NCBI GenBank assembly: GCA_045047305.1
Contig: JASFYO010000077.1
Coordinates: 1 to 40,423, forward strand
DNA from: Planctomycetota bacterium
GTDB taxonomy: Bacteria > Planctomycetota > UBA1135
Length of the DNA: 40,423 nucleotides
Reading direction: 5' to 3'
Shown piece after piece: positions 33,001 through 39,000 of this stretch (position 1 is its first letter; every line of letters starts with the position of its first letter). Position numbers: made by a program.

Positions 33001-36000
33001 AATCATGGCGCTAGCCCAACAACGATTGGATTCATCAGCCGCGGCTTGGCATCCATAGTTACCGATTTGCGGATAAGTCATCACAATCGCTTGGCCCTGA
33101 TAGGACGGATCGGTAATGATTTCCTGGTAGCCCGTCATGCCAGTGTGAAACACTAACTCAAAGGCTCGTTGGCCTTCCATGCCGACGCTGTGGCCACGAA
33201 AAACGGAGCCATCTTCAAGAACGAGAATTGCCGGTCGTGGTGAGTCACCCATTGCGGGGCATTATCGCCCCACCAGGTACTTTCGCCAAGCCTCACTCTG
33301 AGTCTCTAGCGTTTCTCCATCCGGCCCCGAAAAATCAGGCCGTGGATTCTTGTCTCGCTTCAGCTTTCGCCTGTTGGTTTCGACCTTTTTGCCACCGGAA
33401 CCCGGGGTGATCACACGCTCCAGCACGTCGGCCATGACTGCTTTTTGCTGGGTGGTCGCTACAGCACCATCCTCAAGGGAGGAGCCCTCAGTGACGGCGA
33501 TGCCTGAACCGGTCAGTGAAATTCCAGCCGGAGGTGCGCACTGGTAGCCGCTCGCGCCTGCACTGCCTGCTCCTAGGTAAGAGGCACGCAGGAGTTCCGC
33601 GATTTCGGCAAGGATATCGGGGTAGTAGCGCCCCAGTTCTCCCAGTAGGAAGGAGGCTCGACGCTGCGTTTCTAGCTCCCGACTATCGATGAGTGCGAAG
33701 GCCCAGCGGTAAAGGCCACCTTTGGTGTCTAATGCGAGTAGCTGGGTGCCGCTAGTTTTGAAAACCCAAATGTCCTGGTCGGTCATGCTGGTCTCAAGCA
33801 GGAATTCGGCCAATCCTTCCTCGTTCATCAAGACCGCAAGGTTCACTGCAGCCCAGCGCAATCCTGGGTCCTGGTGGTCCATCACCTTGATGACATCTTT
33901 CATCGCCAGGTGCCGCCAGTAGCCAACTCCAGTTTTTTCACTTTCGCTGAGCATTGCGCCGTAAATCAGGGCGCGTTGGCAGCCTTCTGCGGCAAGTAAA
34001 CGTACCCATAATTCTTCCGCGCGCTTGCTCTCTGGAAATCCTGGTGGGAGAGGATCGATACGCGCGCCCCAGGGCATGATGGCAGCAAATAATTGTTCGC
34101 GATTGAAGCGGTCGAGGCGTTCCTTCATCAAACGATCGAAGAGACCGCGTTCTCCAAGGCGTTGGACCCAAGTGTTGTAATCTAAATCGCGCAATGGTTC
34201 TAGTAGAGCGATTTCTTCGGCGCTGTTGCTGAGCGCAGTTACGCGTTGTCCTTCTGTGCGCAGCACTCCAAGCGAAGTGCGCACCATATAGGAGCCAACT
34301 TCGACATCATTCAAAACCTGAACGCGCGTGCCATCGTCAAGGCAAGCAAGTGGCTGCTGAAAGAGGGGGGCCGCAAGTAGAAGGATTGCGTGAATCATTT
34401 GTTTCGTCCCAATAGGTAGGTGCGCCAGGCTTTGCCCGCATCGGTTTCATCGTCCGCATCGATAGGTTGACCATCCGCATCGGTACGTGGGGGAATGCTG
34501 GCTTTCCCGCCGAGTGTGACTACGTTCTGTAAAACCCTGGATACGGTGCGCATTTGGGTTTTGGATGGTGTGCGAACTTCGAGCACGGATCCTTCGGTGA
34601 CCGATCGCCCAGGGGCATAGCCCGGCGTGATGGCGGCAGCAGGAGTCGATGGCGTATCACACCCGTTTCCATTTCCGCTACTGCGGCCGGAGAGCCCACC
34701 GGCAAGGTAATAATTACCGGTAACAATGAGTTCTGCGAGTTCACCGGCGATTTTGGGATAGGCGCTGCCAAGTTCCCCAAGCATGAGCGCCGCGCGGTCC
34801 TGCATAGACTCGCTTTTTGCCGTGACAAGTTCATAAGCCCAGCGATGCAGCGCGCCACGCGGGTCGGTTTGAATGAGTGAGGTGGCGCTGGTGAAGGCAA
34901 CCCAATCATCTTCGTCTTCTAAGCTAGCGTCGAGTAGAAGGATTTCCATTGCCGACTCCAATTGGATTCCGGCGACGCGTGCAGCAGCCCAGCGTAGGGT
35001 GACATCTTTGGATTTTGCTGCTTTACGCCATGAACTTAGGCTAATCCTGCGTTTACGGCTATCCGTACTGCGCGAGATTTCATGTTCCAATGCACCAAGC
35101 AAGAGCGCGCGTTGTCCATCTTCGGCGTCGAGCATTTGCTGCCAAAGCTTGTCGACACGTAAATCGCGTTTGGTTTTACGTGGAAGTGGGTCTAGGCGGT
35201 TTCCCCAACGCGCGAGGGCGTCGTAGATGAGGGCGCGGTTGCTGTCTTGGATGGGTTCCTGCAGTAGACGGTCAATCAAACCGCGTTCCTCTAAGCGGTG
35301 CACCCAAGAGGCGTAATCCAAATCACGCAAAGGAGCTAGCAGGGTGATTTCATCTGCGCTGTCGAGCAATGCGACAACCTTCTGGCCGGCACTGCGGAAT
35401 TGGCCGTGAGGCGTGATCACGTGGAAGGAATCCACTTGAACTTCAGGCAACACCTGGAGCCGGGTGCCGTCGTCGAGCACTGCAACGGGTTGTTGTAGTA
35501 GGAGTCCGAAGAGGAGGGAGCTCAGCATGGTTACTTGGTGGGGTAAGTGTTTTCGTACCAGCGCATCCAATCGGCGCGCGTGTTGCCCGGGTTGACCCCG
35601 GTGATCTGCCGAAGGTTACGTCGGATTGCTTGGCTGACCACGACCGAAACAACGCGAACTTCCAGCATAGTTCCATCGACTAAAACCGAAATGCGAGGAT
35701 CTGCAATGACAGCTGAATTCGCTACTTCGACGTCGAAGTCGGTGACGGCTGTGATTTGGCGTCCAATGAAAATATTGCTGCGAGGAGCGACCGCATTGCT
35801 TTCGCCGCCCATGGCAAGAATTAGAGCACGCACGACATCCTGCTCCTTGGATCCATAACGTGCAAGGTTGTCCGCCGCTAAAACACGTTCTGCATCTTTG
35901 CCATTACGCCACAGTGCGACCGTCCAACGACCCAAACTTTCTTGTGGTTGCATGGAGTAAATCGCATCGGAAGCAGCACGACGCACGCCCATATCCTTAT

Positions 36001-39000
36001 CTTCTAAACTTGAATCCACCAGGCGGTGCATCAAACTGAACTCCACCTGACGCTCTGCCAAACGTGCTGCAGCCCGACGCAGTTCCGGATCCTTCGACTT
36101 CAATGCCTTGCTCATTGCCGATAATCCCACGCGACGTTTATGGGCAGAACTGGAATCGCTGACTTCGCGCATGAGTGCTCCTGTTAAAAGAAGCTGCTCG
36201 TCATCCGACTTGGTCTTTTGCATGCGCTCCCACAAAGTTTCAACTCGCTGGTCGTGATCGAGCTTCAGCGGCAAAGGATCCAAGCGCTTCCCCCAATCTT
36301 CCACCAACTGCTGATAAAGGGCGCGGTGTTGTTTGGGGATTTCCTGGCTCATCAAGGTGCTCAGGAGGCCACGCTCAGCAATCCGTTGCAGCCACAAACC
36401 ATAATCCATGGTTTTCAACGGCGCGAGTAAACGCAGGTCTTCTTCGCCGTCTGCCATCGATGCGACGGGATCTAAACTGGCATCGAAGCGTCCAAATGGT
36501 GTGTTTAGGTTGCGTTGCCCAATGCGAACAGAGCCCTGGGTTTCCACGCGAGTACCAGAATCGAGAACCGCGATGGGATGCTGTGAGCTCAGCAGAAGTA
36601 AGGCAAGGAGCATGACGTAAAAGGCTAGGTGTTAAGTTTGGGTGGGCAACCAATCCTCGAGATAAAACTTGATCCAATCACTACGTGAGCGGCCAGTAGC
36701 TTTGCCAGCCCAGGCGTCGAGTGCTTCAAGAAGCACAATGAGCTGCCCTTCGCCAAAACGTTTGACCTTGAGTGACGCGTGTGGGTCAAGAAGAGCCTTG
36801 TTTGCCGGGAGATAGGTGATGTCCACATCCTCTTGGTCTGGTGAGTAGCCGGGAATGTCGAGCGCATTTCGGTCGTGCGTTGAAACTACGCTGATGGTGC
36901 GGCCGGCGAATTCGTAGTGGCTCCCAGAGCGGTGCTCCCAAGCGGAAAGCACGGCAACTAAACTATTGATACCATCTGCCTCGCCATAGGTGCCCAAGTT
37001 ATATGCGGCCGCGATGCGATACTCATCTTTGCCTTGCGCTAAGTTTTTCGTCCAGTAGGTGCGTGCGGTTGAGGCATGCAAAAGTTGTGCGCCAAATGCA
37101 GCGGCATCGCGGGCGGCTTCGGTGTTATCCATAATCGAAGCTTCGAGCAAAGTTTCTCGCAGAGAGAATTCTTGCTGACGCCCTGCAATTTGGCTCGCAA
37201 TCCGGCGTCGTACCACGCTGGAGCTACGTAGTGATTTACGCAAATCACTAAGCTGGACTTGGAGACTATTGTCGTAGTTGGAAGTGGATGAAACTTCATC
37301 CACTAGCCTGGAACCGGCTAGCACAGCTGCAGTGAAGTCTTTGCCATTGGCGACTTGCCATAACCAAGCAACGCGATCTTGCACCAAAACTTTTGCCGGT
37401 ACCGGGTCAATGCGGCGTCCCCAAGACTCTAGTAAGCGAAACGGGAGAATGGCTTGTGGATCCAGCGTAAGCACTTCTAGGCTGGCGCGGGAGAGCTCTT
37501 CAAGTTGGCCTGCGCGGGATAAATCGCGCAACCAGGAGGCGTCGTCTAAAACACCAATCTGATGTTGCTTGCGCAGTTCCAGCACCTGTTTCTCGCCGTC
37601 GATAATGGCAACAACAGGGTCGTGTGGGTTGCGGAAAACCCCATAGGGGGTTTGGATCTCGCGGTCGCCAACTTCAGCGTGCACAGACTGAATCTGGACT
37701 CCGTCCTGGGTCACAGCAATGGGAAGTTGCGGAGACTGGAGCGGAAAAGCAAGAAGAGCAGAGGCGACGAGCCACAACATGGTCCAATTCTAGTGCAAAG
37801 AATGTGCCGTTTGGGCAATTTGGGCGGCTAGAAAGCCACCACCGAAGCCATTATCGATATTCACCACCCCAATCCCGGGCGCACACCCGTTCATCATCGC
37901 GAGAAGCGCCGTAAGTCCTTGAAAAGAAGCACCATAGCCAACACTGGTTGGGACGGCCACGACCGGGCTTGCGACCAAGCCAGCAACCACCGAGGGGAGG
38001 GCACCCTCCATCCCGGCAACGACCACTAGGGCATCCGCTGTGCGTAATCGCTCTAAATGGTGCAAAAGGCGGTGTAAGCCAGCTACGCCGACGTCGACCA
38101 AAAGCTCGGTTTTGGCACCCAGCCAGGCAGCTGTGACCTGGGCTTCGGCTGCGACAGGTAGGTCGGAGGTGCCAGCGCAAACGATGAGCACATCTCCTTT
38201 GGGCTCGGGCGGTGCGCTGCGGAACCAGGTGATGCAACGTGCTTGTGGCTCAAAGTTGGCCTCTGGGAGAACCGCGACCACGGCCTCAAATCGTGCTTGG
38301 TCGGCATGCGTGAGAAGTAATTTTTCATGCGCCGATGCAATCGCCAATGCAGCTTCGACGCATTGCGCTGGCGTTTTGCCACCTGCAAAAATCACTTCTG
38401 GCGCACCGCAGCGCAATTCCCGGTGCGTATCCGCCATGGTTTCGGGACTACTCGTGAATGGCAGTTGGGATAATTTGCCAACTGCATCGTCTACCGAGCA
38501 GGCACCGCTTTGTACTTTTTGGAGAAGCTGTTCGAGTGTGTTGCGGTCCATGATTAACCCGTCGATGCGACATCTAAATCCAAACCATCGACCAAACCGC
38601 GCCGCAGTTTTTCACCACCCAACCCTGCAATCATGACCGCGTTATCGGTGCAATATGCCGGTGGTGCAAACTGAGCCGTGAACCCAGCTTTCGTTGCTTC
38701 CTTTGCCATCACCGCACGCAGTCGCGTGTTGCATGCGACGCCGCCGCCAACCAACACACGCTTGATTCCAGTTTGCTCACAGGCCCGTCGACACTTCCGC
38801 GCTAAAGTTCGCGCCACAATCGATTCGAAACTTGCACATAAATCAGGAATGCAGGCGCGATCCACAATCCATGGATCCGAGGTCGTTCCGCCGGGCCCCT
38901 TGATGGTGTAAAGCAAGGCCGTTTTCATTCCAGAGAAGGAGAACTCCAAGGACTGCGGTGCAATCAACGGCATCTTAAATGGAAAGGCATTAGGGTCGCC

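Follow-up and report, generated by a model that had tools for sequence, protein, structure and literature searches.

A secretin Gate 1 hairpin within a planctomycete HEAT-like protein, and its tracking of the secretin encoded in the same genome

In this analysis of a Planctomycetota bacterium, we find that a 45-residue stretch of a soluble, probably periplasmic HEAT protein (B, residues 278 to 322) is a secretin inner-barrel strand pair together with its Gate 1 loop, and that this loop tracks the secretin of its own genome, down to shared insertions and deletions. Such tracking across many planctomycete lineages points to an undescribed plug or gate-control partner of secretins. We consider it about an even bet (roughly 0.5) that the hairpin of the HEAT protein, once exported, inserts between the gate loops, making the protein a removable plug or a regulator of the gate.

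Gene B, its neighbors, and the origin of the hairpin

The window, by which we mean the whole stretch of DNA analyzed (40,423 nucleotides; contig JASFYO010000077.1), gave no Rfam match and contains the following features.

32104-33252, minus strand: carA (carbamoyl-phosphate synthase small chain), closing gene of the array
33262-34398, minus strand: paralog D, 378-aa ORF; motif lost
34395-35528, minus strand: paralog C, 377 aa counted from the ATG; insert Gly rich and Cys bearing, without the motif
35531-36613, minus strand: gene B (g02257), 360-aa ORF; the conserved member of the array
35648-35782, minus strand: B residues 278-322, the stretch that copies a secretin's inner-barrel strand pair with its Gate 1 loop
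35672-35764, minus strand: B G284-G314, gate loop with a hinge position at either end; alignment by way of secretin S1 places these at G267 and G297 of pIV
36632-37780, minus strand: paralog A, 382-aa ORF; stems of the insert kept, tip longer and different
37790-40423, minus strand: S41 protease (cut by the contig end), tsaD and larB, upstream in the same tightly packed run

Pairwise identity among the four tandem genes is 27 to 41%; C and D (40 to 41%) are recent duplicates, and an alternative TTG start at 35570 would make C overlap B. Only B carries the motif, the tips of the other three inserts having been replaced. In the 21 other loci of the family, carA closes the array every time and A adjoins B in 9, while C is present in 3 (each in the window's genus) and D in 1, which rules out the four-gene array as a conserved unit.

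B consists of a hydrophobic N terminus, a small beta domain, a helical/HEAT body, the Gate 1 copy, and a capping helix with a W-x-x-W motif. The N terminus is hydrophobic in 83 of 88 full-length family members, which suggests that B is probably exported to the periplasm; no transmembrane-like stretch was seen beyond the N terminus in A to D. Pfam HEAT scores for B lie below the curated cutoffs (PF13646, 20.4 versus 27.7 bits; PF02985, 21.4 versus 23.5 bits), as do those for C and D, and the same search found no match in A; PF13646 was recorded for 9 of 27 homologues. In the monomer model, 220 of the 360 residues reach a pLDDT of at least 90, and residues 270 to 322 fall below 50. The best fold matches of this model are alpha-Rep, HEAT, and TOG proteins (Z 9.2, rmsd 8.4, 204 residues aligned), with scores that are common among helical repeats; the best Foldseek E value was 0.002, with nothing at or below 0.001. 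A wide structure search with the model, in which the hairpin is unmodelled, returned no secretin among the 50 matches listed, and Atlas matches were to HEAT or unnamed clusters only, all below 0.9. None of 106 candidates was a longer protein containing B residues 265 to 355, a count that constitutes weak evidence, and the long open frames inspected (L008, L010, L017, L028, and L032) are upstream read-through in high-GC DNA.

The hairpin is 51% identical to secretin S1 (C5:7942-10644) over 45 residues (E 1.6e-7), its counterpart being residues 688 to 732 as numbered from the S1 Met, and 61% identical to secretin S2 (C5:18352-21048) over 36 residues. When the profile of the HEAT family was compared with that of the secretin core, a single 51-column stretch aligned (probability 99.1, E 9e-19). 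All 28 aligned sequences agree at eleven positions (Q286, D292, D294, V295, E296, A298, I303, A304, P306, G314, and L317), and of the two hinge positions that bound the Gate 1 hairpin of B, G314 is kept in all 28 and G284 in at least 90%. Our reference systems for this gate (Gate 1, or central gate) were f1 pIV (7OFH), GspD (5WQ8), and PilQ (6W6M), under PF00263; the strand-Gate 1-strand segment of pIV (PMC8563730) aligns with B residues 278 to 322 through S1, both hinge positions included. Unlike in the secretins, the segment in B lies within a soluble HEAT protein, without outer barrel, N domains, or Gate 2, and a PF00263 search for the full secretin domain gave no match in B.

Searched across the whole genome at E of 0.001 or lower, the hairpin profile finds five places: B, S1, S2, and two copies in C3:19499-21061. 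Because the single-sequence match of this last frame to the secretin core is weak (probability 66), we leave its designation as a "lip-less secretin" unconfirmed. A third secretin, encoded on C35 next to a T2SSE ATPase, has a score no better than E 1.6, and no solved structure scored below E 0.5. S1 and S2 reach 83 and 85 bits against PF00263 (cutoff 27.5), their Foldseek ranks 1 to 40 are all secretins, and in the S2 model, whose best structural matches are secretins, the Gate 1 stretch is one continuous hairpin; both score under every NCBIfam equivalog cutoff, including that of Amuc_1098.

Elsewhere in the genome than B, S1 and S2 flank a TPR-TPR-ExbB-ExbD-ExbD block. At every one of the 12 loci that are complete across the interval, ExbB and two ExbD genes separate the two secretins, which makes a force-transmitting partner of the gate plausible. 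The block contains no ATPase, and no vWA match was found among the ORFs scanned. It recalls the TPR-TolQ-TolR-TolR motor clusters of PVC bacteria, where a TPR gene, a TolQ/ExbB-like gene, and two different TolR/ExbD-like genes occur together; those clusters come with vWA force transducers, and the section of that report covered names no secretin and no HEAT protein (PMC12204202).

The survey's finding from which we started thus holds in its core: the hairpin shared by g02257 and the two large secretins, its 51% identity to S1, the invariance of the motif residues, the confident HEAT body with an unpacked hairpin, and the degenerate inserts of the paralogs were all seen again. The four tandem HEAT-repeat paralogs that it describes stand as tandem ORFs, with the HEAT assignment subthreshold or absent in Pfam, and its subject narrows from the array to gene B.

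Tracking of the secretin in the same genome

We compared the 29-residue core of 57 testable hairpins, all from genomes with a secretin. The 40 genomes examined in detail were picked for having the HEAT gene, and related genomes are not independent, a limit on all of the tracking statistics. Identity was 0.77 to the own secretin and 0.61 to those of other families; against a class-matched control (0.59), the own secretin was higher in 56 of 57 cases. The own secretin was strictly the closest for 32 hairpins and not for the other 25, and 9 of 50 fell below the mean of same-family genomes. None of 2,000 family-level permutations reached the observed tracking; within families, P was 0.028. The family-level effect is small (0.64 versus 0.61, P = 0.0003, 22 genomes). 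In comparisons within a family whose orthologous secretins differ, the two HEAT hairpins each followed their own secretin in 19 of 28 cases and the opposite in none; these comparisons overlap and are restricted to pairs at 0.75 or above.

Length changes are mirrored as well. A 4-residue tip insertion is present in both hairpin and secretin in six genomes (G022, G064, G096, G098, G141, and G154), and a 4-residue deletion of the gate tip in two others (G052 and G118), each of which has two tandem HEAT genes matching one of two secretins apiece; in G054, a very different gate is matched by the HEAT hairpin. The tracking is limited to the loop between the hinges (B positions 287 to 312), involves both of its faces, and is strongest at the tip (positions 300 to 302). 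S1 and S2 do not track each other (0.55 to the own S2 against 0.53, strictly best in 0 of 37), and other secretin-like carriers gave 0.49 against 0.46 (strictly best in 4 of 62). In the window's genome the match of the hairpin is weak and falls to neither secretin in particular (0.66 to S2 and 0.59 to S1), and three genomes of other families tie with it.

The earlier proposal of co-occurrence with the secretins therefore proves stronger in one respect, since sequence and indels follow the own secretin, and one-sided in another, since secretin genomes can lack a detectable HEAT-hairpin gene. A strong hairpin match without a HEAT match at E of 1e-20 or lower occurred in 19 of 200 genomes, one of which (G165) does possess the HEAT gene; for G084, G045, and G062, which possess both secretins, there was no HEAT-hairpin match. 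Several genomes thus have these secretins without B, whose family looks accessory. G073 (92% complete) and G111 (90%) are the reverse case, with the HEAT gene but no large secretin detected. In the cultured Saltatorellus ferox, the HEAT protein occurs together with both secretins; the word "secretin" is absent from the main text of the Saltatorellota preprint (10.1101/817700). Judged by titles and abstract openings, and with subscription journals and supplements, which could hold a mention, outside the scope, none of the papers listed in literature searches describes the HEAT-hairpin family or these secretins.

Selection, gene conversion, and a proposed docking model

One could imagine that the two proteins have no physical link at all, the HEAT proteins building a beta-barrel ring of their own from a captured hairpin that ectopic gene conversion with the secretin homogenizes as a by-product. 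Apparent conversion tracts fit this (25 of 26 synonymous codons identical in G004 and 27 of 29 in G189), as do switches of hairpin class inside HEAT-body clades in a quick tree (58 of 60 rows, some S1/S2 labels being unsure), the tandem paralogs whose tips differ, and families f7, f40, and f54, whose HEAT body carries an unrelated insert. Against it, synonymous identity is the same for cognate and noncognate pairs (0.70 versus 0.69; observed over expected, 894/808 versus 662/603), G174 and G128 keep 25 to 26 of 29 residues with only 8 to 10 identical codons, and S1 and S2, with far longer shared homology and about 10 kb apart, have yet not been homogenized. An excess at P < 0.05 was found for 9 of 57 cognate and 3 of 58 noncognate pairs; with a single cognate pair surviving Bonferroni correction, general recent gene conversion is ruled out. 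The window's genome has 6 of 19 codons identical, versus 8.5 expected. Because synonymous sites are mostly randomized and conversion tracts are few, selection with episodic gene conversion fits best, and we regard the absence of any physical link as quite improbable.

The survey's finding had left partner, plug, and substrate side by side. Since the hairpin, indels included, follows the secretin of its own genome, partner or plug is now the leading reading, and physical binding of B to the secretin seems to us a reasonable surmise from sequence. A substrate role, in which B would be exported through the secretin and the hairpin would serve as a self-like export signal prying the gate open, is the least likely and strikes us as very improbable. 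Export signals are often C terminal, as is the hairpin module, and tracking would fit recognition by the gate; but the family has a uniform body of about 350 to 480 residues, without varied cargo domains in the sequences read, and the run of genes that includes B is a housekeeping one, with tsaD and carA.

In the docking model that we favor, B would act in the periplasm as an accessory to the paired TPR-secretins associated with ExbBD. The hairpin, unstructured alone, would enter the ring of Gate 1 loops from the periplasm and fold there, at a site equivalent to that of the secretin's own loop. The HEAT body would then lie in the vestibule and serve as a plug that can be removed or as a regulator of the gate. 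A docking site of this self-like kind would oblige the hairpin to remain nearly identical to the gate; occasional gene conversion may bring in new gate versions, which selection would then maintain. In solved secretins, according to the parts of these studies covered, the gate loops contact one another at the pore center (PMC8563730, PMC10550240). The passages covered on Pseudomonas aeruginosa PilQ describe SlkA and SlkB as periplasmic proteins forming a displaceable plug inside the secretin lumen, at the level of the gate; Slk homologues are chiefly gammaproteobacterial, and for bacteria that lack them the authors expect plugs of other types (PMC13392014). Periplasmic plugs at secretin gates thus exist, and by analogy they offer a precedent for our model; the likeness lies in the function that we propose for B, and those passages describe no gate copy such as B has. 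Against the docking model stand the weak match in the window's genome, where gene B is also not beside the secretins, the 25 hairpins not strictly closest to their own secretin, and the genomes with secretins but no HEAT-hairpin match or the reverse. A complex prediction of B residues 160 to 360 with two S2 cores (318 aa) is neutral on the matter, scoring 0.00 in both runs, in which the controls did not fold either.

A single third partner bound by both loops would predict tracking by identity just as well. Gate and hairpin might present the same acidic D-x-D-x-E epitope to the motor-coupled TPR protein or the cargo. B would then never contact the secretin and would either tune gate opening as a decoy or serve as a hand-off receptor in the periplasm. 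This would account for identity instead of complementarity and for one HEAT gene per secretin class, it fits the ExbB and ExbD genes between the secretins, and other secretin-like carriers retain the same acidic residues. However, the inner-barrel strands on either side and the hinge glycines are retained in B too (R278, G284, G314, and L317), beyond the needs of an epitope, both faces and the tip indels are mirrored, and we found no candidate for such a molecule; we hold this reading to be possible but rather doubtful.

Secretins also have helical accessory proteins, as we propose for the B family: the pilotins (PulS, AspS, TadD, and PilF/PilW), which are lipoproteins that bind the secretin outside the gate. 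B instead carries the gate itself, and 0 of 88 full-length family members match a simple lipobox pattern. Could B nevertheless be a pilotin-like mimic, an assembly chaperone or ring-edge cap whose hairpin, in place of the next subunit, pairs with the free Gate 2/inner-barrel edge of a secretin not yet assembled and so prevents premature or wrong assembly? B retains the barrel strands and hinges, the segment is unpacked in the monomer model, and Gate 1 forms four main-chain hydrogen bonds to the neighbor's Gate 2 in the portion of the pIV work covered (PMC8563730). Edge pairing near the hinge needs no identical tip, yet it is the tip that tracks most strongly; together with the missing lipobox and the genomes that have secretins and no HEAT gene, this makes such a role unlikely in our estimation.

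How secretins stay sealed, and what opens the gate, is an open question in the field. If the docking model is true, this would be a new kind of channel control, exerted by a soluble protein whose copy of the gate is kept constantly up to date. More tentatively, and with less conviction than for docking itself, many Planctomycetota may run a proton motive force-coupled secretin machine with soluble "spare gate" keys, each HEAT protein inserting an exact Gate 1 copy into its cognate secretin (S1 or S2) to seal or unlock it, conversion keeping key and lock identical, and A, C, and D being keys of changed specificity or competitors. The finding would be a clear case of concerted evolution of a 30-residue loop in two unrelated proteins. 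Its cognate pairs predict specific swap experiments, and it opens a way into a conserved envelope module of planctomycetes in which two secretins surround an ExbBD motor.

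A secretin gate hairpin in a HEAT protein

The host genome (2.83 Mb, 88% complete, with named relatives in the Planctomycetota) carries on contig C77, the window, between larB and carA, four paralogous ORFs with 27-41% mutual identity:

A: 36632-37780, minus strand, paralog whose insert keeps the stems and has a longer tip with its own conserved sequence
B: 35531-36613, minus strand, the only one of the four with the gate motif
C: 34395-35528, minus strand, paralog with a Gly-rich loop containing cysteine in place of the tip
D: 33262-34398, minus strand, paralog with a Gly-rich loop containing cysteine in place of the tip

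Residues 278-322 of B are 51% identical over 45 residues to S1 (C5:7942-10644), and B is 61% identical over 36 residues to S2 (C5:18352-21048); these are the host's two large secretins, and both score above the Pfam secretin cut-off. The survey's figures for identity, residue invariance and model confidence were all reproduced on reanalysis; in the single-protein model, the segment has a pLDDT under 50. Comparison with a secretin core profile found no secretin-like part in B beyond this stretch. When S1 was aligned with phage pIV, the stretch spanned an inner-barrel strand, Gate 1 and the returning strand, and a model of the S2 core, whose top structural matches are secretins, has a single continuous hairpin (strands 155-174 and 177-199). 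As described in excerpts of the respective papers, Gate 1 of pIV is bounded by hinge glycines 267 and 297, extends to the pore centre and hydrogen-bonds with the adjacent subunit's Gate 2 (PMC8563730), and cross-links can be obtained between the gate tips of XcpD (PMC10550240). At the first hinge B has Gly (G284, window position 35764), like pIV, while S1 has Ala and S2 has Leu.

The remaining motif carrier in the host is C3:19499-21061 (L003:7500-9062), a 521-aa protein with two copies and no Pfam or NCBIfam match; many genomes encode similar two-copy proteins, in which tracking of the secretins is barely detectable. Elsewhere in the window, on the plus strand, 1820-7505 encodes a DabA-family subunit of an inorganic carbon transporter, with two NADH-dehydrogenase/Mrp-type membrane subunits after it rather than one, and 26784-31746 encodes, after an ABC-2 transporter, an 853-aa protein with Ig/carboxypeptidase-regulatory-like repeats adjoining an 803-aa membrane protein that contains a spermidine-synthase domain.

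In 21 other family loci, chosen because a usable contig held a match to B, B is without exception part of a run ending in carA (21/21), usually preceded by an S41 protease and tsaD. It is accompanied by A in 9, by C in 3 and by D in only 1. These counts and the differing tips indicate that B is the conserved element and that C and D are recent duplicates. A, C and D may retain contacts made by the body, having lost the gate mimicry. Many A-type proteins also have Gly-rich replaced tips with cysteine.

Secretin block and distribution in the phylum

From S1, the gene order is two TPR genes, ExbB, two ExbD genes, a decarboxylase and S2. Of 23 loci examined (11 partial), all 12 that span the interval have ExbB and two ExbD genes between the secretins. 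TPR-TolQ-TolR-TolR clusters are known in PVC bacteria, although the excerpted description (PMC12204202) includes no secretins, unlike the S1/S2 block. The decarboxylase (C5:16759-18342, L001) is pyridoxal dependent and recurs in four other own-family loci. The host's third secretin lacks the gate motif and adjoins a T2SSE ATPase; its region (C35:19660-34508, L004) encodes STN and N domains in the secretin, a TPR protein, a STAS-MshEN-T2SSE ATPase and, nearby, three long genes with pilin-like N termini. Two f43 genomes have an additional S2-type secretin away from the main block (L156, G189; L158, G082).

In 200 phylum genomes, each at least 90% complete, the B-family profile matched 65 at E<=1e-20, and all 65 had a hairpin match at E<=1e-15, a figure that is partly circular because B itself contains the hairpin. 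An independent count over 40 genomes read in detail, every one selected for having the HEAT gene, found large hairpin-bearing secretins in 38 and none in G073 or G111. The co-occurrence reported by the survey does not hold in both directions: secretins can occur without the HEAT gene. A strong hairpin without a strong HEAT match was seen in 19/200 genomes (one, G165, being a false negative of the HEAT cut-off), and G084, G045 and G062 have both secretins with no HEAT-hairpin match. Within the host's own family, hairpin matches occur in 40/40 genomes, of which about 33, going by the match table only, have a B-like match in a short frame; the other seven are 69-88% complete. Among 20 genomes selected for a weak or absent match, three (G154, G054 and, weakly, G074) encode a HEAT protein whose hairpin resembles the gate. 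In f7, f40 and f54 the same HEAT body carries an unrelated insert. Cultured Saltatorellus ferox has S1, S2 and the HEAT gene.

In family f13, where no HEAT-hairpin match turned up, three large secretins lie in tandem (L394, L409, L412, G010:C4; L395, L407, L410, G039:C33), and those of G010 have shortened gate tips. Tandem HEAT-hairpin genes with an in-frame stop inside the hairpin occur at L065 and L137 (G051:C4) and L061 (G069:C127), followed in G051 by another short hairpin repeat.

Each hairpin and the secretin of its own genome

We compared 78 secretin and 60 HEAT hairpins from 41 genomes (17 rows reclassified by hand; about 70 other or partial carriers set aside), dropping three HEAT rows without an own secretin. 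Over 29 residues, the HEAT hairpin was 0.77 identical to its own genome's secretin and 0.61 to those of other families (n=57), the own secretin being strictly best for 32/57; none of 2,000 permutations over 19 families attained the observed value, and tracking was also detected within 13 families (p=0.028). A class-matched control gave 0.59, with the own secretin higher in 56/57. We made 28 comparisons at sites where orthologous secretins of a family differ, using pairs that overlap and were filtered at 0.75: both HEAT proteins matched their own secretin in 19, kept a common residue in 5, did otherwise in 4 and showed the opposite in none. The excess is limited to positions 287-312, between the hinges. 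Neither S1 against its own S2 (0.55 versus 0.53; strictly best 0/37) nor other secretin-like carriers (0.49 versus 0.46; 4/62) showed tracking. Against tracking, the window's own pair is weak (B is 0.66 identical to S2 and 0.59 to S1), and tracking in its family is small (0.64 versus 0.61, 22 genomes). The best HEAT hairpin from another family averages 0.77, equal to the own secretin, because overall conservation is strong.

Length changes are mirrored as well. In more distant families (G022, G064, G096, G098, G141 and G154), gate tip and HEAT hairpin share the same four-residue insertion, probably a single event, and over the 19-residue tip the two are identical in G064. G052 and G118 have a tip shortened by four residues, together with a tandem pair of HEAT genes, each of which matches one of the two secretins.

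Synonymous identity was similar in cognate (894/1273) and non-cognate (662/964) pairs and same-family orthologues (1299/1927), and both kinds of pair lay about 10% above the codon-usage expectation. In G174 and G128, 25-26 of 29 residues are kept with only 8-10 identical codons, so selection maintains the protein sequence. In G189 and G004, secretin and HEAT DNA are near-identical, and this near-identity ends at about the first hinge, as a conversion tract would. In a quick tree of HEAT bodies, hairpin excluded, S1-type and S2-type hairpins fall together in starred clades in f57 and f21 and form stable separate clades in f46 and f31. Episodic conversion followed by selection fits the codon, tract and tree results. 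The same conversion could be a by-product in HEAT proteins that form an independent ring, which we consider improbable.

A proposed place at the secretin gate

If the hairpin occupies a site equivalent to that of the secretin's own loop, or shares the loop's partner, it should be identical to the loop rather than complementary to it. A third partner common to the gate and the HEAT hairpin would likewise predict identity, and is a possible, though distinctly less favoured, explanation. Because B retains the hinge glycines and the flanking barrel strands, and tracking extends over both faces as well as the tip, we prefer docking among the gate loops. On this sequence evidence, we put at about one in two the probability that B docks there as a removable plug or regulator; its hairpin would insert among the loops, occupying the position of the secretin's own. 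An edge-capping chaperone is unlikely, and that B is simply an exported substrate is very unlikely indeed. The export, binding and function of B are inferred. SlkA/B, as described in part of PMC13392014, are periplasmic plugs at the secretin gate, and so a precedent for the role proposed for B.

Judged by the features tested, B is neither a secretin nor a pilotin, it matched no NCBIfam family, and we found no description of the HEAT-hairpin family in the open literature, exclusive of supplements and subscription papers. The mirrored indels, the pairing of one HEAT protein per secretin, the negative controls and a cultured species with all three genes are added here to the evidence. We regard a HEAT protein with a copy of the secretin gate hairpin as a new kind of part.
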